Shown here: positions 7,031 through 29,430 of the stretch, one piece after another | Position numbering within the stretch: position 1 is the stretch's first letter | How the letters are laid out: each line of letters opens with the position of its first letter | From: Escherichia coli | GTDB lineage: Bacteria > Pseudomonadota > Gammaproteobacteria > Enterobacterales > Enterobacteriaceae | Assembly (NCBI RefSeq): GCF_017348835.2 | Contig: NZ_CP071375.1 | DNA: 64,000 nucleotides | Reading direction: 5' to 3' (one strand) | Notes under the pieces: generated by a model | The model's input: the letters and a program-made list of their open reading frames with translations, nothing else | Told to the model about the DNA's origin: nothing | The model's database searches: none | Position numbers and translations under genes: made by a program

Positions 7031-7914
7031 TAACCTAAATGCTCGCCGCCGCACACGCCGTGCACTTCTGCGGTGACGTAGCTCGACTCCTGACTTGCCA
7101 GATAAACATATACAGGGGCCAGTTCCGCCGGTTGCCCCGCACGCTTCATCGGCGTTTTCTGACCAAACTGCGGGATCTTATCCTGCGTTTGTCCGCCGGA
7201 AATTTGTAGTGCCGTCCAGATAGGGCCTGGCGCGACAATATTCACCCGAATACCTTTCTCCGCGACCTGTTTTGCCAGGCCACGGCTGTAGTTCAGAATC
7301 GCCGCCTTCGTAGCCGCATAGTCCAGTAAATGCGGACTTGGCTGGTATGCCTGGATTGACGAAGTGGTGATGATACTTGCACCTTTCGGTAGCAGGGGGA
7401 TCGCTTCCTGGGTTAGCCAGAACAGCGCGAAAACGTTAATGGCAAAGGTCTTTTGAAACTGTTCGCTGGTGAGGTCTGCAATATCCGGAATGGCAACCTG
7501 TTTCCCGGCGACCAGCGCCATAATATCCAGCCCACCTAAGGCCTTATGCGCTTCGTGAACCAGCGAACGGGCAAATTTCTCATCGCTTAAATCGCCTGGC
7601 AGCAGAACGGCTTTGCGTCCGCATTCTTCAATGATCTTTTTCACATCCTGAGCGTCTTCTTCTTCCACGGGAAGATAACTGATCGCCACGTCAGCCCCTT
7701 CACGCGCGTAAGCGATGGCGGCAGCGCGACCGATTCCGGAATCGCCCCCTGTCACCAGGGCTTTACGATCTTTCAGGCGACCGCTACCAACATAGGTTTT
7801 CTCGCCGCAATCTGGTACCGGTGTCATCTTCGCCTGGATGCCTGGCGTCGGTTGTTTCTGTTTGGGATATTCACCAGTGTAATACTGCGTGGTCGGGTCT
7901 TTTAAATGAGACAT
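7030..7914 (-). CDS. yghA: short-chain dehydrogenase/reductase (NAD(P)-binding oxidoreductase)
   Basis: 294-aa ORF; TGGDSGIG Rossmann motif; recognised as YghA. Confidence 0.85.
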
Positions 7915-23387: not shown

Positions 23388-24274
23388 TGCCACTGCTGGA
23401 TAAGCTGCGTGAGCAGTACGGGGTCGGACCGGTATGCAGCGAACTGCATATTGCCCCGTCAACGTATTACCATTGTCAGCAACAGCGACATCATCCGGAT
23501 AAACGCAGTGCCCGTGCGCAGCACGATGACTGGCTGAAGAAAGAGATACAGCGCGTATACGATGAAAATCACCAGGTATACGGTGTGCGTAAAGTCTGGC
23601 GTCAGTTGTTACGGGAAGGTATCAGAGTGGCCAGATGCACTGTGGCACGTCTCATGGCAGTTATGGGACTTGCCGGTGTTCTCCGGGGTAAAAAGGTCCG
23701 CACTACCGTCAGCCGGAAAGCCGTTGCCGCATGCGACCGCGTAAACCGTCAGTTCGTGGCAGAACGTCCAGACCAGTTGTGGGTGGCTGATTTTACCTGG
23801 GTAAGCACATGGCAGGGCTTCGTTTATGTGGCGTTCATCATTGATGTGTTCGCCGGATACATCGTGGGATGGCAGGTCTCATCATCCATGGAAACAACAT
23901 TCGTGCTGGATGCACTGGAGCAGGCGTTGTGGGCCCGTCGGCCGTCCGGCACAATCCATCACAGTGATAAAGGTTCTCAGTATGTATCGCTGGCCTACAC
24001 GCAGCGGCTTAAGGAAGCCGGATTACTGGCATCAACAGGGAGTACTGGCGACTCGTATGACAACGCGATGGCTGAGAGCATCAATGGTCTTTACAAAGCG
24101 GAGGTAATACACCGTAAGAGCTGGAAAAACCGGACAGAAGTGGAACTGGCCACACTAACGTGGGTGGACTGGTATAACAATCGACGATTGCTGGAAAGGC
24201 TGGGCCATATTCCTCCGGCAGAAGCAGAAAAAGCTTATTATGCTTCCATCGGAAATAATGATCTGGCAGCCTGA
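23387..24274 (+). CDS. IS3-family transposase OrfB (DDE catalytic domain; normally expressed as OrfAB fusion by -1 frameshift)
   Basis: 295-aa ORF overlapping OrfA stop in -1 frame; DDE-type integrase-core features (…HSDKGSQYVS…); A-rich run ggaaaaaataatg at the overlap. Confidence 0.85.
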   Translation: MPLLDKLREQYGVGPVCSELHIAPSTYYHCQQQRHHPDKRSARAQHDDWLKKEIQRVYDENHQVYGVRKVWRQLLREGIRVARCTVARLMAVMGLAGVLRGKKVRTTVSRKAVAACDRVNRQFVAERPDQLWVADFTWVSTWQGFVYVAFIIDVFAGYIVGWQVSSSMETTFVLDALEQALWARRPSGTIHHSDKGSQYVSLAYTQRLKEAGLLASTGSTGDSYDNAMAESINGLYKAEVIHRKSWKNRTEVELATLTWVDWYNNRRLLERLGHIPPAEAEKAYYASIGNNDLAA

Positions 24275-24366
24275 GTTCACAGATAAAACACTCTCCAGGA
24301 AACCCGGGGCGGTTCAGTATAATGCCACTGCATAACTGATTCCCATTTCGTAGAGGCTGTTAACTC

Positions 24367-24398
24367 TGTATCAAAGTCCTGACAAAGGACTGTATCAA
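24367..24398. promoter_or_regulatory. Operator-like composite repeat upstream of the 534-aa orphan gene
   Basis: tgtatcaa AGTCCT gacaa AGGACT gtatcaa: 6-bp palindromic arms flanked by direct tgtatcaa repeats, about 50 bp upstream of the ATG; function inferred only. Confidence 0.3.
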
Positions 24399-24445
24399 GT
24401 TTCTCTACTGAAACAGCTATGCAATAGACGGAAGAATTTAACATT

Positions 24446-26050
24446 ATGGTAACTAAAAAGGTAAAAACAAACCACCCGTACTATCGTGTTTTATCTGGCA
24501 CCTCCATGCCGTTTCCCCACATACATGAAGCTGTTTCCGAACAGTTGCTTCTACTCATTTTCAAAGCACGCAGATTGTATCTGGATCCAGAATATCGTCC
24601 CTGGTTTGATGAACAACATCGGATTCTCTCGGCATTACGCGCTAACACAAAACTACAAAATATTTTAGAGCAAAATAGAGAGGACTACTCCATAGGTGAG
24701 ACCGATAATCCACTATCTAAAGAGCTGTATGCTGCTTTTCAGGTTATGTGCCATTTATACAATGGTTTTGATAACAGACTCGTCAGCCTGAAAACCTGGG
24801 GAGATATGAACAGGGAACCAACAGCAAAATTTGTCGGCCAAAATAGTGGTGGCTGGAAAACACCTGAGATGGAAGAATTCGTCAGAAACGATTTGTTCAA
24901 TATTCTGACAGATTGCAAAGCTCATTGCTCACCACTTCCCGCTCTGGTTCGACAAGGATATTGCCATCAGGATCTTTCTGTTGCGCACTCATGTACTAAA
25001 GAATTACTGGAACAACTGAACCGATACCATCAAATTGATGAATCAGCGATACTTGCCAGAACCCTTGGTTTGGCTATTAACAACTGCTATCACTCAAAAA
25101 CAGAGATTCCTGAATGGCTTTCTCCTTTTGAAAATGAATACAAAAGTCCCTGGAATTGTGAGAAACCAGATACTAACGATGTGAGTAAACTTAGAAAACA
25201 ATTGCTAACAATCGGGCGTACAGAATTCGTGGACAAAATGTTTTCGCTAGCCAACAAAAATGCAACAAAGATAATATATGATGGATACGTTAAACTTTAT
25301 GCTCTGGAAATATATGAATGGTTAAATAAATTAGTGCAATATTTTAAAGGAAATGATTTTATTCGTTACACCTGGAAATTCACAACAATTATTTCCGATG
25401 AAAGTGACACGATTGAAAACACCACCGCATGGGAAAAAGACTATTGTCAAATCACTATACAGCGCGATGAACTTCTGAAACTGATTTATACCAATACCCT
25501 GCAGGATGCAGCAATGAATCTTGCTGGTTGCCTGCAACAGGCATACATAGAACCGTTAAAAAGGGAAATAAATTATCCAGGAATAAACATTGATGCAAAA
25601 GAGCGTGAAATTAGAAAATCTATTGAATTCAGGAGCGAACTGAATAACTTCACAAACATCATGAAACAACTGGAAACATTTGAAAAATGGTATAATGCCA
25701 ATAAAATTCTGTTGGTAAGTAACAAAAAGAAACGTACAGAAAAGATTGACGTGAATATTCGTCTTGCAGGACTGAAAGGCTATGATCTGAATGAAGGTAT
25801 ACCTGATGGTCAGGGACGCAAAATTAAAGATGGTGTGAATGAACTCGTCAAGGCAGATGGCAGTCTACAACTTCCACAAGATATCAGTGACACTTCGCTT
25901 AACCGTTACCGTCAAGCAGTTCAACACATTATTAAGGATGAGATCGACACGTTGCTGATAGCACAGAGGGAAAAAAATAAAATAAATCCATATAGCGAAG
26001 ATAGATACTCTATACGACCTTTATGGGGAAAATGTCTGGTCGAACAGTAA
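24446..26050 (+). CDS. hypothetical protein, 534 aa, no recognisable family (orphan accessory gene; AT-rich)
   Basis: Long uninterrupted ORF in visibly AT-rich DNA; no P-loop, no transmembrane segments, no signal peptide by eye; Cys/His cluster CKAHC...GYCH...HSC near residues 155-185; not recognised as any K-12 protein. Confidence 0.6.
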   Translation: MVTKKVKTNHPYYRVLSGTSMPFPHIHEAVSEQLLLLIFKARRLYLDPEYRPWFDEQHRILSALRANTKLQNILEQNREDYSIGETDNPLSKELYAAFQVMCHLYNGFDNRLVSLKTWGDMNREPTAKFVGQNSGGWKTPEMEEFVRNDLFNILTDCKAHCSPLPALVRQGYCHQDLSVAHSCTKELLEQLNRYHQIDESAILARTLGLAINNCYHSKTEIPEWLSPFENEYKSPWNCEKPDTNDVSKLRKQLLTIGRTEFVDKMFSLANKNATKIIYDGYVKLYALEIYEWLNKLVQYFKGNDFIRYTWKFTTIISDESDTIENTTAWEKDYCQITIQRDELLKLIYTNTLQDAAMNLAGCLQQAYIEPLKREINYPGINIDAKEREIRKSIEFRSELNNFTNIMKQLETFEKWYNANKILLVSNKKKRTEKIDVNIRLAGLKGYDLNEGIPDGQGRKIKDGVNELVKADGSLQLPQDISDTSLNRYRQAVQHIIKDEIDTLLIAQREKNKINPYSEDRYSIRPLWGKCLVEQ

Positions 26051-26062
26051 CTCACTGAGAAA

Positions 26063-26085
26063 GGGGATAGCAGTTCGCTATCCCC
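26063..26085. terminator. Hairpin between the convergent orphan genes
   Basis: ggggatagc agtt cgctatcccc inverted repeat seen directly; no U-tract. Confidence 0.35.
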
Positions 26086-26132
26086 AAGGGAGACTTTCCA
26101 GCAAGATCTCAAAAAACGAGACACTCGGCAAA

Positions 26133-26729
26133 TTATGCGGCTTTACCATTAACAGATTCAGCCACAAGAACGACAGCGTGTCTGTTTCGCTCAGGATGTT
26201 CACTCCAGATTTCTGATTCCGGGATGCTTTTCCCGTCATAACTGATCCGTTCGCCATCAAACGGGTAATACCGTGCGGAATCAGTATCTAAAATAAACAC
26301 CTTCAGATTCGTTGAACGACGCGCAATATGCTGCCAGAGAGCTTTACCTCCTTCATATTGCTCGTTATCACTTAATAGTACAACGCCCGCTTTTGTGACT
26401 ATCGTTTCATAAACAAACGTTGCAAGACCAACATCACGTACAGCGCCATCGACAACAATCCCTTCAATCTGAGCAACATCCTGTTCTTCCCAGAATTTCT
26501 GGACAAACACGCCTTCAAGCCGGGGACGACGCTGAAGCTCCAGAGTGGCAACAACCTTATGGCGAACATCACCATCAATAACAGAAGGTGCAGCTTCGAT
26601 TACCGCAGCAAACGGAGTCTTTGGATCCCAGATGATCTGGTAAAGCACGCCCTGAATAGTTACTCCATCCAGTATCGAAAAACGACGAGCTACAGTAGCA
26701 GGGGAGTAAGACATTGGAATTACAGCCAT
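26133..26729 (-). CDS. hypothetical protein, about 198 aa (orphan accessory gene)
   Basis: Track ORF 26133..26759 starts at a GTG; the downstream ATG at 26729 (MAVIPMSYSPATVARR) is preceded by a good Shine-Dalgarno (agagggga) and is preferred; soluble protein with no recognisable motif; same strand as integrase. Confidence 0.55.
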   Translation of the reverse strand: MAVIPMSYSPATVARRFSILDGVTIQGVLYQIIWDPKTPFAAVIEAAPSVIDGDVRHKVVATLELQRRPRLEGVFVQKFWEEQDVAQIEGIVVDGAVRDVGLATFVYETIVTKAGVVLLSDNEQYEGGKALWQHIARRSTNLKVFILDTDSARYYPFDGERISYDGKSIPESEIWSEHPERNRHAVVLVAESVNGKAA

Positions 26730-26858
26730 TTTTGAATCCCCTCTGAGTAATACCGGCACGAAAATTTACCTCAATAATTATAGTAAACAATACAAGAACC
26801 AAGTGCATCAACAATACCCATCAATTGTACACAATTCGTACAGCGACCAGGAACTCCC

Positions 26859-28175
26859 TCACCTTCTGCCAAACAGATTGACAACATTATTGCCTGTTTG
26901 CTGTTGATAGTTATTAACCCGGTCCTCCCAGATCTCAAGTGCTCTGCGTTTTTCTGGCAAATAATCGTATCGATCATAATGTTTTGAACTGACATCGTTC
27001 AACGCATGATTTTGAATACGATCGCGGATTTCCTTACTGATCCCAGCTTCTCCCATTAACGTTTTACAGGTCCGACGTAAGTCACGTGCTGTAAAAATTT
27101 TAAAGTCAGGATTAAAAGCCCGGAAATACATGATAGCGCGAGCCAGACTGTCCGTACGAACCGGACGCTTACCATTAGTCGAAAGTGGAAAAATGTAAGG
27201 GCTGGATTTTTCTTTTGTTAACTCCTGCACACAGGATAATTCCTGTAATGCTGATTCAGTCAACGGTATCAAATGCTCTCGTTTATTTTTAGAGACATCA
27301 GCAGTCACCAGCAGCGTTTTTTGTTGAAAATCAACATCACACCACTGACTGGCGATCATTTCGAAGGGACGTTGCCCTCCGGTATAGATACAGAATCGGA
27401 TCAAATGTTGCATCAATAATCCAACGTTGGTTGCTTCAGCAAAATGTTCCATTAGAAAACGCAACTCTTCAAGTGTCAGCCAGGTATCACCGACTTTTTC
27501 AGCAGATGACTGTTTCGGTATCACTGACACCGGATTTGCCTCCAGCCCAAAAGTAATCCCTGCACTTGTGTTCATCGGATCGTTATCTGCTTTCAGTCCA
27601 TAGTTAAATGCAGCCATCAGGTAAGAACGGATCCGGTTAGAGTGAACCACAGCACCACGCTGAATGATCCCGGCCAGGATATGTTTAATCTGTCCGGAAG
27701 TCACATCTTTAGCTTTAGTTTCACGGGGGATCACTGTATAGCATTCATTTTCAAGGCGTTTCAGAACATCCTGCCATGTCCTCTTATTATCAATTTTCAT
27801 TTTGTTAACATAACCATGAATCAATGCTTCAAATGAGCCCTGTGATTGATGGAGTTGTATCCGCTGCTGTTCTGCAAACTGTTGTCGTTCCAGTTCTGCC
27901 TGGGGATCCTTTCCTTCAATGAGCCAGGCACCATACTTTTTTGCCAGTTCATTCGCTGTGGCCAGTTTCATCTCAGGCCATATACCCAATTGAATGAATC
28001 TTTCTTTTTTCCCTTTTTCCACGTAATAGCGGAAATAGAAAATCTTGCTGCCAGAAGACTGAACTTTGACACCAAGTCGTCCAGTGCCACGTTGAGAGCT
28101 GTTGCTCCAGACATAGAACGATGTCTTTTTTGCTTTCAATGCTCGGATGGCTGTTTCAGTAAGATTGACGGCCAT
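26859..28175 (-). CDS. int: site-specific tyrosine recombinase, P4-type integrase (N-terminal arm-binding DUF4102-like domain)
   Basis: 438-aa ORF; N-terminus LTETAIRALKAKKTSFYVWSN...YFRYYVEKGKKERFIQLGIWPEMKLATANE matches the P4/CP4-57 integrase pattern; C-terminal R...HxxR...Y-type catalytic region (ARDLRRTCKT, HALNDVSSKHYDRYDY); Shine-Dalgarno aagagg upstream; adjacent to tRNA fragment. Confidence 0.85.
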   Translation of the reverse strand: MAVNLTETAIRALKAKKTSFYVWSNSSQRGTGRLGVKVQSSGSKIFYFRYYVEKGKKERFIQLGIWPEMKLATANELAKKYGAWLIEGKDPQAELERQQFAEQQRIQLHQSQGSFEALIHGYVNKMKIDNKRTWQDVLKRLENECYTVIPRETKAKDVTSGQIKHILAGIIQRGAVVHSNRIRSYLMAAFNYGLKADNDPMNTSAGITFGLEANPVSVIPKQSSAEKVGDTWLTLEELRFLMEHFAEATNVGLLMQHLIRFCIYTGGQRPFEMIASQWCDVDFQQKTLLVTADVSKNKREHLIPLTESALQELSCVQELTKEKSSPYIFPLSTNGKRPVRTDSLARAIMYFRAFNPDFKIFTARDLRRTCKTLMGEAGISKEIRDRIQNHALNDVSSKHYDRYDYLPEKRRALEIWEDRVNNYQQQTGNNVVNLFGRR

Positions 28176-28371
28176 AGAACCTCTTTTCTAAACCAGTAAC
28201 AATCAGAATAACTCGTGATTTTGGGTCAGGTAATGGGTCAGGTAACGATCGTACAATGAAGAAAAAACGGAACCAAGCGGAGACAGAGAAAATTACATAA
28301 TTCATTGATTATAAACAACTAATAAAGCAATCGCGAACAAACAAAAACAATATAGAACGAACTTGCCTCAT

Positions 28372-28418
28372 GACTCATAATCGCTTGGTCGCTGGTTCAA
28401 GTCCAGCAGGGGCCACCA
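28372..28418 (+). tRNA. ileX: tRNA-Ile2 (ileX, anticodon CAU/LAU) 3'-terminal 47-nt fragment; island attachment-site repeat, not a complete tRNA gene
   Basis: GACTCATAATCGCTTGGTCGCTGGTTCAAGTCCAGCAGGGGCCACCA matches the anticodon loop through CCA end of ileX as I recall it; the sequence 5' of it cannot pair with the acceptor 3' strand (no GGCCCCT), so the D-arm and 5' acceptor are absent. Confidence 0.7.
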
Positions 28419-28427
28419 GATACAGTA

Positions 28428-28461
28428 AAGGCTGACGAGAAATCGTCAGCCTTTTTCTTTT
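28428..28461. terminator. Rho-independent terminator (native ileX terminator, also downstream of yqjH)
   Basis: aaaggctgacga gaaa tcgtcagccttt hairpin followed by tttcttttc. Confidence 0.6.
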
Positions 28462-28471
28462 CATATATCAG

Positions 28472-29236
28472 TTACTTCGCGTGCCAGTAAGCCGCTGCAC
28501 GTACCTGTTGAGGGTCATACTGTTCCGCTTCAAAGCGACGGCTTAAATTCTTCACCACCTTCCCTTCGCCGGTTATCCAGATGAAGTAATCATCGGCAGG
28601 GATTTGCATCTGCGCCAGACGCGCATCTACCGCCTGCTCATCATGTGCCAGCCATTCGATATTAAAACCATCAAGGTGCGCGAGATAATCCTGACAGGCG
28701 TTATCCCGCACGCTAACCAGCGCGCTAACTTGCGGTTTAACGGCAAGTTTGCTCAACGTTTCCAGGCGGCGGCGCAGTGCGGGCATTCCGGATTCATCGC
28801 AGACATACAGCTGATACGCGTAATCTTCCGGCACCACCAGCGAACCGCGCGGACCTGCCACCGTGAGTTTATCGCCCGGTTGGGCCTGCATTGCCCAGCT
28901 ACTGGCGACGCCGTCTTCGTGAATAAAGAAATCAATCGCCAGTTCATGGCGTAGTTCGTCATACAACGGCGTATAGTCACGCGACGGTGGGCGTGGTCCT
29001 TCCGGCCAGACGATGCCCTCTTCCGTTACCGTTGGCGGCACAAAGTGAGCGTCAGGTTGAGGAAAGAAGAGTTTGCTGTGATCGTCAAAGCCGCGCGATG
29101 TAAAACCGTCCAGCGCCTCGCCGCCAAGGACAATGCGCTGAAAACCGGCGCTGATACGCTCAACGCGTAGCACAGTCAGTTCACGGAACCGCAGATCATT
29201 GCGAACGCGCTGCGGGTAGCGGGGGGTGTTATTCAT
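28472..29236 (-). CDS. yqjH: siderophore-interacting / NADPH-dependent ferric-chelate reductase
   Basis: 254-aa ORF; recognised as YqjH (NfeF); FAD-binding siderophore-interacting family. Confidence 0.85.
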   Translation of the reverse strand: MNNTPRYPQRVRNDLRFRELTVLRVERISAGFQRIVLGGEALDGFTSRGFDDHSKLFFPQPDAHFVPPTVTEEGIVWPEGPRPPSRDYTPLYDELRHELAIDFFIHEDGVASSWAMQAQPGDKLTVAGPRGSLVVPEDYAYQLYVCDESGMPALRRRLETLSKLAVKPQVSALVSVRDNACQDYLAHLDGFNIEWLAHDEQAVDARLAQMQIPADDYFIWITGEGKVVKNLSRRFEAEQYDPQQVRAAAYWHAK

Positions 29237-29315: not shown

Positions 29316-29349
29316 CAAGCGATTTGTAGAACTGATATGTCTATAGTCT

Positions 29350-29430
29350 GATAAGACGAACCGCCTCTTCTCAGGCATCATTACTCAACGCCGGATGCGG
29401 CGTGAACGCCTTATCCGGCCTACGTGTGAG
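29350..29430. repeat. REP element
   Basis: gccggatgcggcgtgaacgccttatccggcctac motif; approximate coordinates. Confidence 0.6.

Follow-up and report, generated by a model that had tools for sequence, protein, structure and literature searches.

In a window of 64,000 nucleotides of Escherichia coli DNA (the whole stretch that was analysed; RefSeq assembly GCF_017348835.2, contig NZ_CP071375.1) we found about 4 kb of foreign DNA at the tRNA gene ileX, and this segment (24317-28418) very probably belonged to a CP4-57-like integrative element in the ileX 3' end, of which it is the end that bears the integrase. The island has been shortened by an insertion sequence (IS), and as a CP4-57-like tRNA island it would be of a known kind. 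Besides the integrase gene (int) it carries two open reading frames (ORFs), named here ORF534 and ORF198 after the lengths of their products in amino acids (aa). Taken as a whole, the locus is best explained as a truncated island with two independent cargo genes for which separate roles can be proposed, an account to which we give about even chances. The features of the locus are the following, in window coordinates unless a locus label is given.

23007..24316, plus strand: IS629-like element of the IS3 family, orfA/orfB with programmed frameshift, recognised by its ORFs, terminal inverted repeats, ALIL pseudoknot and the RefSeq name 'IS3 family transposase'
24317..24445, plus strand: residual native DNA 5' of ORF534, 129 bp; homology to intact islands begins at 24317
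24446..26050, plus strand: ORF534 (WP_000256686), orphan family, mostly alpha-helical, candidate conflict or defence gene
26051..26132, no strand: spacer of 82 bp, flanked by the stop codons of the convergent ORF534 and ORF198; no terminator-like site called
26133..26729, minus strand: ORF198 (WP_000268404), start codon ATG as in RefSeq; divergent GNAT-fold protein, N-terminus PmgF-like, motif R98-x-x-G101-x-A103
26859..28175, minus strand: P4-type tyrosine integrase (WP_000290292), 438 aa, found at ileX and at a near-identical site beside ypjA
28176..28371, no strand: AT-rich spacer (GC about 40%) from the integrase start to the attachment (att) repeat; presumed element end and int promoter/arm region
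28372..28418, plus strand: 47-nt direct repeat, 3' end of tRNA-Ile(CAU) ileX; island boundary (att)
28427..28454, plus strand: native ileX terminator hairpin, where the backbone restarts
28472-29236, minus strand: nfeF/yqjH, beyond the ileX terminator
L003:19352-20130, example from an intact relative: alpA-ORF534 intergenic region, absent from the window

The insertion in ileX is marked by the exact copy of the last 47 nt of this gene at 28372-28418, for which the number expected by chance is 0. Identity to K-12 stops immediately 5' of the repeat, and in the other direction it runs through the ileX terminator into yqjH. In MG1655 (K-12) nfeF/yqjH directly follows ileX without any insertion, as the first-pass annotation of this DNA had stated, and this layout excludes the segment being ordinary K-12 backbone. 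In every island variant that carries int, this repeat stands about 200 bp away from it. ORF534 stands out by its GC content, 34-42% across the gene versus 50-57% in the flanking backbone, and insertion of integrative elements at ileX is already on record (PMC7067040, PMC7545054).

The integrase counts as P4-type because it combines the domains PF13356 (Arm-DNA-bind_3) and PF00589 (Phage_integrase), which were read on the 98-99% identical integrases of relatives. It matched the integrase profile PHROG 1 (E = 1.5e-45) and, below cutoff, NCBIfam PRK09692 (78 bits). By eye its translation shows YTGGQRPFE, ARDLRRT and KHYDRYDY, which fits boxes I and II with R replacing the box II His. A gap of 129 bp separates it from ORF198. 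The anatomy given in the first-pass annotation, about 4 kb of foreign DNA at ileX, a P4-type integrase beside a 47-nt ileX repeat and two ORFs of 534 and 198 aa with the larger one in AT-rich DNA, was thus confirmed, every described element falling within 1-2 nt of where it had been placed. A promoter and terminator scan of the island gave no excess over shuffled sequences and was uninformative. The Rfam search returned just the IS3 ALIL pseudoknot and, outside the island, a REP/naRNA4-like element; this naRNA4 match is sub-threshold (46.5 bits versus a gathering score of 59.5), lies on both strands at 29345-29420 and falls between nfeF/yqjH and nfeR/yqjI.

The other end of the island is missing. 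ARAGORN called no tRNA in the 64-kb window, and the same tool does find ileX in K-12; the second island boundary, with an intact tRNA copy, is absent, the left end having been replaced by the IS at 23007-24316. The element in the window is a remnant. The IS629-like element is 1310 bp long with terminal inverted repeats TGAACCGCCCCGG, its two ORFs lie at 23061-23387 and 23387-24274, and the ALIL frameshift pseudoknot (23342-23458) scored 120 bits in Rfam. Island DNA restarts at 24317, right after the IS end at 24316, so that replacement of this end by an IS had been read correctly and only the island start moves, from 24318 to 24317. Beyond the IS, a kinase-like ('thymidylate kinase') pseudogene fragment of 78 aa (22756-22992, minus strand) and then pitB are joined directly to the ileX island (window 21208-24316), and an IS-mediated rearrangement likely made this junction. 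In K-12 pitB presumably lies about 80 kb from ileX with the essential genes rpoD and dnaG between them, and for this reason an IS-mediated inversion is more likely than a deletion. The window is 100% identical to E. coli PE164, a pig isolate, over 24275-28470, and our first sequence search gave 32 matching places in PE164, probably multiple IS copies.

What was lost can be seen from intact islands. In these the alpA-ORF534 intergenic region is about 700-780 bp long, very AT-rich and poorly conserved, and an alignment of six such regions showed that the other approximately 650 bp are missing here. The only block conserved in these six otherwise divergent regions is the palindrome TGTGA-N6-TCACA, which resembles the CRP consensus, lies about 370 bp upstream of ORF534 and was removed by the IS in the window. 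A tblastn search of the window found no alpA, YfjI or Gp2. On the course of events that we propose, an element would have inserted in the ileX 3' end, and an IS629-like element, probably by rearrangement with the pitB region, would have removed all that lay beyond ORF534, namely alpA, the replication/Gp2-type genes, most of the ORF534 upstream control region and the intact ileX copy. The integrase and the int-to-alpA cargo slot would have been left, and the two genes in this slot, each mobile on its own and each kept by selection, would not make up a single operonic system.

In intact relatives, ORF534 and the intergenic region are followed by a divergent AlpA-family gene, then by a YfjI/DUF3987 gene or a pair of hypothetical proteins, by Gp2/YfjJ-type genes and by variable distal cargo, including two-partner-secretion/contact-dependent inhibition genes and a TOTE-system primase; the partner genes beyond the IS, to which the first-pass annotation had pointed, are thus alpA and its followers. 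The full CP4-57 order (int, cargo slot, alpA, DUF3987/YfjI, Gp2/YfjJ) was seen in relatives and in K-12 CP4-57, and its int-to-cargo part is present in the window. None of the psu/sid/delta and alpha-primase markers was seen in the window's element. Its earlier description as P4-like therefore suits the integrase; the element itself is very probably a CP4-57-type integrative element and not a P4 satellite.

Elements of these islands occur in 8-15% of complete E. coli genomes. Among the 5426 that we counted, the integrase is present in 438, the ORF534 family in 689 (about 13%) and the ORF198 family in 805, with 129 places on plasmids. A module of int, ORF198 and ORF534 with the same repeat (44 nt or more) was also found beside ypjA, and since we take ileY to adjoin ypjA in K-12, this copy would occupy the paralogous ileY site. 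An integrase-less version of the ORF198 and ORF534 pair abuts thrW.

Some observations on relatives of the island may be added. In the window-type variant the two hypothetical proteins that replace YfjI/DUF3987 have 248 and 186 aa (L003:17533-19061, minus strand); the 186-aa protein has a weak C-terminal helix-turn-helix (HTH) like sigma region 4 or a DNA invertase (PHROG 125, E = 4e-6) and the 248-aa protein had no match. Other variants carry a 'TOTE conflict system archaeo-eukaryotic primase' gene just past the Gp2/YfjJ gene (L024:405-2765 (-), L025:2049-2439), and such islands therefore hold further conflict-system cargo. The 11.7-kb Salmonella enterica 'plasmid' pIndS102_4 (CP101363.1) was considered as an excised circle and rejected; it is a linear chromosomal contig with aer-nfeR-nfeF and for this reason gives no evidence of excision. 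Its order is aer-nfeR-nfeF-int-ORF198-ORF534-alpA onward, with an ORF198 100% identical to the E. coli gene, and it represents a wrongly labelled contig or else E. coli-like DNA within an assembly of Salmonella.

The two ORFs had been put forward in the first-pass annotation as a single candidate system. They are convergent across the 82-bp gap and therefore form no operon and are not co-transcribed; ORF198 is co-oriented with int and not with ORF534. None of the ORF534 homologues examined outside Escherichia had an ORF198 neighbour, and ORF534 without ORF198 was found in a Klebsiella P2-like prophage, in Serratia, Enterobacter, Buttiauxella, Siccibacter, Pantoea, Citrobacter and Atlantibacter, and on IncF plasmids. 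Likewise, no ORF534 neighbour was seen beside any ORF198 homologue examined outside these islands, that is, on SJ46/RCS47-type P1-like phage-plasmids, in an F-like leading region and at a chromosomal site. Between island variants the amino-acid identity is 98-99% for int, 91-98% for ORF198 and 75-79% for AlpA, and 58-60% for ORF534. The synonymous divergence (dS) of int is about 0.1, that of ORF198 0.05-0.2 and that of ORF534 about 1.1, and the 5- to 10-fold difference between the two ORFs in the same islands means that old ORF534 alleles were swapped independently into similar islands. We conclude that ORF198 and ORF534 are two independently mobile cargo genes in one slot.

The inheritance of the two genes in E. 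coli chromosomes weighs against this conclusion. Their identity classes match nearly one to one: ORF198 is at least 99% identical in 261 genomes and ORF534 at least 95% identical in 259, while ORF198 at 90-99% occurs in 432 genomes and ORF534 at 60-80% in 430, and the two are therefore co-inherited. The pair also stays together at thrW without this integrase and is kept, over ileX, the ileX-like site near ypjA and thrW, in about 250 more genomes than the integrase itself. Near-perfect co-inheritance of this kind could mean a functional coupling that the independent-cargo reading downplays. One undescribed, integrase-borne defence or abortive-infection system of two genes, for example a GNAT effector or modifier with a large sensor, would agree with it, and neither protein matches PADLOC. 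Nevertheless, a two-gene system is improbable in our judgement given the convergent arrangement, the dS difference, the acidic, glycine-zipper or HTH partners that accompany ORF534 homologues outside Escherichia in place of ORF198, and the ORF198 homologues that stand on phage-plasmids, on an F-like plasmid and at a chromosomal site with no ORF534 beside them. Of the single-system proposal, the co-inheritance in E. coli chromosomes remains, and the genes are convergent and separate outside Escherichia. A constant company of the pair with this integrase was not borne out.

Selection on the two genes bears on another explanation, namely that both are functionless passengers of a decaying island remnant. 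The truncation, the loss of most of the ORF534 upstream DNA, the lack of a promoter-like excess and the absence of a known function for either gene would all suit passengers. However, both ORFs are intact in hundreds of genomes, and the ratio of nonsynonymous to synonymous substitutions (dN/dS) is well below 1, being 0.02-0.21 for ORF198, which means strong purifying selection, and 0.23-0.54 for ORF534, several-fold above ORF198 and int (0.03-0.09). ORF534 has moreover kept its full length (about 490-550 aa) and its invariant residues down to 18% identity across genera. We regard mere passengers as hardly credible.

ORF534 is a soluble helical protein of an orphan family with a basic, HTH-like C-terminal domain. 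No match was found in Pfam (the single sequence and 16 divergent members), NCBIfam, PHROGs, PADLOC or a PDB profile search. The screen for known defence genes used PADLOC-DB v2.0.0 at E <= 1 with ORF534, ORF198 and ten divergent ORF534 homologues, thus 11 members of the ORF534 family; in agreement with the earlier view that neither ORF could be assigned to a family, it knows neither (0 families), and Pfam gave nothing for ORF534 and GNAT at E = 0.17 only for ORF198. An exhaustive search of 1.84 billion representative proteins with a hidden Markov model of the family returned 42 representatives, about 14 of them full length, and a scan of one genome per species placed the family in 7 Enterobacterales species. 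The AlphaFold2 model of ORF534 (pLDDT 76.7, pTM 0.79) found its own family and two uncharacterised proteins at 11% identity in AFDB50, and nothing else. The name 'tRNA-dihydrouridine synthase' carried by two AFDB family members is unsupported and was disregarded.

The C-terminal third of ORF534 is basic (pI 9.1), and thirteen residues are invariant down to 18% identity: E32, Q33, R42, D109, R169, Y172, H174, W310, D447, S481, R487, P525 and W527. Within the polar set E32, Q33, R42, D109 and R169-x-x-Y172-x-H174, the R-x4-H cluster is a possible catalytic site. An assignment to HEPN would be speculation, given a motif only (R169-x4-H174) and no profile or fold match. Homology to K-12 YfjH, which occupies the same slot, was also rejected (BLASTP E = 0.57).

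The neighbourhoods of ORF534 homologues form a classic guilt-by-association signature, seen in a sample of about a dozen contexts. Members of one clade (clade B, about 42% identity) always have a divergent partner of about 145-150 aa with a net charge of about -35, a pI of about 4 and a tail rich in D, E and Y, which has the look of a DNA mimic and matched nothing in PADLOC, NCBIfam or PHROGs. In a Klebsiella P2-like prophage this pair lies between gpS and gpV. In Enterobacter it adjoins a type II restriction-modification (RM) pair (PADLOC E = 1e-170 and 8e-176) and a recombinase-like gene, in Buttiauxella a McrB-like AAA protein and a WYL regulator, and in Siccibacter an AbiO/Nhi fragment (5e-78), while on IncF plasmids it occupies IS-flanked accessory regions near a type II RM pair, DUF4145 and AbiEii. 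In a second clade (clade C, about 35-39% identity; Atlantibacter, Citrobacter and a metagenome contig) the partners are a divergent, hydrophobic glycine-zipper protein of about 105 aa and an 88-aa protein. Among distant members (about 18-25% identity) the partners are HTH proteins of 78-88 aa that resemble sigma region 4; one such member lies between an integrase and AlpA with a glycine-zipper gene (locus L020), and another between a pPIWI_RE restriction endonuclease module and a HEPN_LA2681 protein. The two recurrent partners lie as follows.

L007:7225-7662, L028-L031 ~7170-7625 and L037:7173-7622, minus strand: acidic partner of clade B
L017:7062-7667, L018:1974-2588 and L020:6891-7217, all minus strand, also L032 and L033: glycine-zipper region, accompanying other ORF534 clades with the 88-aa or a 78-aa HTH protein

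The Gly/Ala-rich glycine-zipper protein is 76-81% identical across distant contexts and may be a membrane effector or a microcin-like peptide; in PADLOC it had only a weak match to PDC-M09A (E = 0.006). No such partner was detected upstream of ORF534 in E. coli islands: tblastn with the acidic, glycine-zipper and HTH partners was negative in an intact island and in the window, and a six-frame look at the alpA-ORF534 intergenic region gave no convincing ORF.

ORF534 homologues are thus repeatedly located with defence genes or in cargo slots (RM, McrB-like with WYL, AbiO/Nhi, pPIWI_RE with HEPN, DUF4145, AbiEii, the P2 slot and int-alpA slots). A preprint describes defence hotspots inside P2 late/tail genes, and reports that six of eight randomly chosen unannotated P4 hotspot loci were protective against phages (10.64898/2026.02.27.708500). 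These contexts suggest, at somewhat less than even chances, that ORF534 acts in the exclusion of phages or other mobile genetic elements (MGEs), and it would do so as a nucleic-acid-binding sensor or effector. We consider it a credible but unproven new anti-phage or conflict gene, its role and mechanism being inferred. The defence role proposed for the locus in the first-pass annotation has therefore gained contextual support for ORF534; ORF198 reads better as an anti-defence or establishment gene.

The position of ORF534 beside alpA suggests another role. It might regulate the island itself as a large repressor or sensor that binds DNA, analogous to the hypervariable Stl master repressors of SaPIs, and would then control excision and replication and not defence. 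In accordance with this, it is divergent from alpA over the long AT-rich region with the CRP-like palindrome, the distant homologue at L020 also lies between int and AlpA, and ORF534 is the most divergent gene between island variants. Many homologues, however, occur with no alpA, integrase or island near them (in the P2 slot, in the IS-flanked regions of IncF plasmids and at sites by RM, McrB-like and mnmE genes), and no HTH family was significant in Pfam. An island regulator is therefore an unlikely reading, and exclusion remains the role that we prefer.

A wider reading of ORF534 as an exclusion gene is more tentative than the exclusion role itself. ORF534 may be the first member of a new family whose proteins act alone against phages or MGEs, use an invariant E-Q/R/D/R-x-x-Y-x-H site and have a fold that no solved or annotated structure shows; CP4-57-like islands, P2-like prophages and IncF plasmids would carry it as slot cargo. 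Its control or triggering would fall to small divergent partners that can replace one another (the DNA-mimic-like protein of charge -35, the glycine-zipper peptide or the sigma-region-4-like HTH protein), and in the islands it would stand tail-to-tail with a GNAT counter-defence gene. If this is true, a defence gene and an anti-defence gene share one slot.

ORF198 is a new and very divergent member of the GNAT superfamily that is probably used by mobile elements. The model shows a GNAT alpha/beta fold, and R98-D-V-G101-L-A103 (R98-x-x-G101-x-A103) matches GNAT motif A and is nearly invariant in 15 full-length homologues; one source names a family member 'N-acetyltransferase'. The earlier verdict that neither ORF can be assigned to a family thus stands for ORF534, and for ORF198 it gives way to this fold and motif. 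No match was found in PADLOC or NCBIfam, PHROG 7522 (function unknown) spans the full length of the protein, and a third round of homologue searching, run from the ORF198 alignment, added nothing deeper to the close relatives already found. The N-terminus is beta-rich, with residues 4-66 being 44.6% identical to phage P1 PmgF. A literature search under the RefSeq accessions or pmgF gave nothing relevant.

The places occupied by ORF198 homologues point to mobile elements. Homologues of 87% identity (SJ46 gp016) are found in SJ46/RCS47-type P1-like phage-plasmids at the pmgF slot, between the tail gene bplB and the rlf/repL/antirepressor region, and PLSDB gave 135 full-length matches, mostly on non-mobilisable replicons of about 95-103 kb. 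On a 160-kb F-like plasmid, a homologue of 73% identity lies about 3 kb from traM/oriT after SLT, Antirestrict and DarA-like genes, and therefore in the leading region. Leading regions are enriched in anti-defence genes (PMC11541004). On this plasmid the order before the homologue is SLT, DUF5983, Antirestrict (PF03230), a 151-aa ORF and a 116-aa ORF (L034:3036-6606), and the 151-aa ORF matches only the C-terminal approximately 160 residues of P1 DarA (E = 9e-36).

From its fold and motif, ORF198 is predicted to be probably an acetyl-CoA-dependent transferase. It would help a mobile element to establish itself, for example by acetylating and thereby disabling a host defence or some other host target, and AcrVA5, a GNAT anti-CRISPR, is a precedent for such a role. 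That ORF198 is an establishment or counter-defence acetyltransferase is possible but, by our estimate, falls short of even chances.

A GNAT fold would also be expected of a toxin or defence enzyme like the aminoacyl-tRNA acetyltransferases TacT, AtaT and KacT. No antitoxin-like gene was seen beside ORF198 or its examined relatives, in particular no adjacent small gene of the RHH/DUF1778 type; the neighbours here are the integrase and the convergent ORF534, and the SJ46 homologue stands alone after tail genes. The N-terminal helices typical of GNAT toxins are absent, their place being taken by the PmgF-like N-terminus, and the leading-region location beside antirestriction genes suits counter-defence better. 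We consider a toxin very unlikely and keep to the establishment or counter-defence role.

Several points weigh against the roles proposed here. The GNAT assignment of ORF198 depends on a model of medium confidence (pLDDT 72.9) together with the motif, Acetyltransf_1 was the Pfam family at E = 0.17, and the PDB profile search gave no GNAT. Its leading-region context is a single case. For ORF534, no recognisable effector domain was found, and the neighbourhood signature can also mark anti-defence or other accessory genes. In the window, moreover, ORF534 may lack expression, because only 129 bp of native upstream DNA are left and the scan gave no promoter excess.

Nothing at the locus overturns expectations, and ORF534 is a well-delimited, widespread and testable candidate. 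It is recognised by no domain, structure or defence database and is carried on islands, prophages and plasmids across Enterobacterales; if it protects against phages or MGEs, a mechanistically new family with interchangeable partners joins the defence repertoire. The int-alpA slot of CP4-57-type elements would then be a hotspot in which cargo can be searched for, as happened with those of P2 and P4. Similarly, if its proposed role is true, ORF198 is a candidate acetyltransferase-type counter-defence factor of P1-like phage-plasmids, F-like leading regions and islands, and it bears on the spread of plasmids and phage-plasmids, including SJ46 and RCS47, which are carriers of antimicrobial resistance. 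Should both ORFs prove to be without a phenotype, the locus is no more than a common truncated remnant of an island.

Both proteins can be compared with known families. Like the HEPN abortive-infection RNases (R-x4-6-H), ORF534 is all-alpha, and its R169-x4-H174 is invariant in 16 members; one distant homologue adjoins the HEPN_LA2681 protein and the pPIWI-RE module. ORF198 shares with the conflict GNATs (AcrVA5; TacT, AtaT and KacT) the GNAT core, the acetyl-CoA motif Q/R-x-x-G-x-G/A and carriage by mobile elements, but differs from them in having no significant similarity to any characterised GNAT, no antitoxin and an odd PmgF-like N-terminus. P1 PmgF (98 aa, 'putative morphogenetic function'; L006:4995-5291) can be aligned to the ORF198 family over the N-terminus and the 'LSDN' strand, whereas the whole GNAT core including motif A is missing from it. 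From its sequence, PmgF looks like a truncated or deletion derivative of a longer SJ46-type gene, and its 'morphogenetic' label, a prediction of the P1 annotation, is doubtful.

The hotspots of P2-like prophages and P4-like satellites (Rousset et al. 2022, PMC9122126) offer a parallel, since ORF534 too stands as one large gene, with a divergent partner, in a recognised variable slot. The window element differs in being neither a P2 phage nor a P4 satellite, and ORF534 matches no PADLOC-DB v2.0.0 system, nor any new system described in the text of the preprint (10.64898/2026.02.27.708500).

The element itself can be compared with the cryptic CP4-57 of K-12, inserted at ssrA (intA-yfjH-alpA-yfjI-yfjJ-abpBA-rnlAB), whose backbone order is common to the intact relatives of the window island. 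Differences were found in each part. The window integrase is 25% identical to IntA and targets ileX or ileX-like sites; the slot holds ORF198 and ORF534 where K-12 has yfjH; YfjI gives way to two hypothetical proteins in the window-type variant; and in the window all beyond ORF534 is gone. The likeness lies in the plan of the element, with a P4-type integrase at the att end, a short variable slot, AlpA, a DUF3987/YfjI-type gene in most variants, Gp2/YfjJ-type genes and, further in, anti-phage or conflict cargo, which is AbpAB/RnlAB in K-12 and the TOTE primase in one relative.

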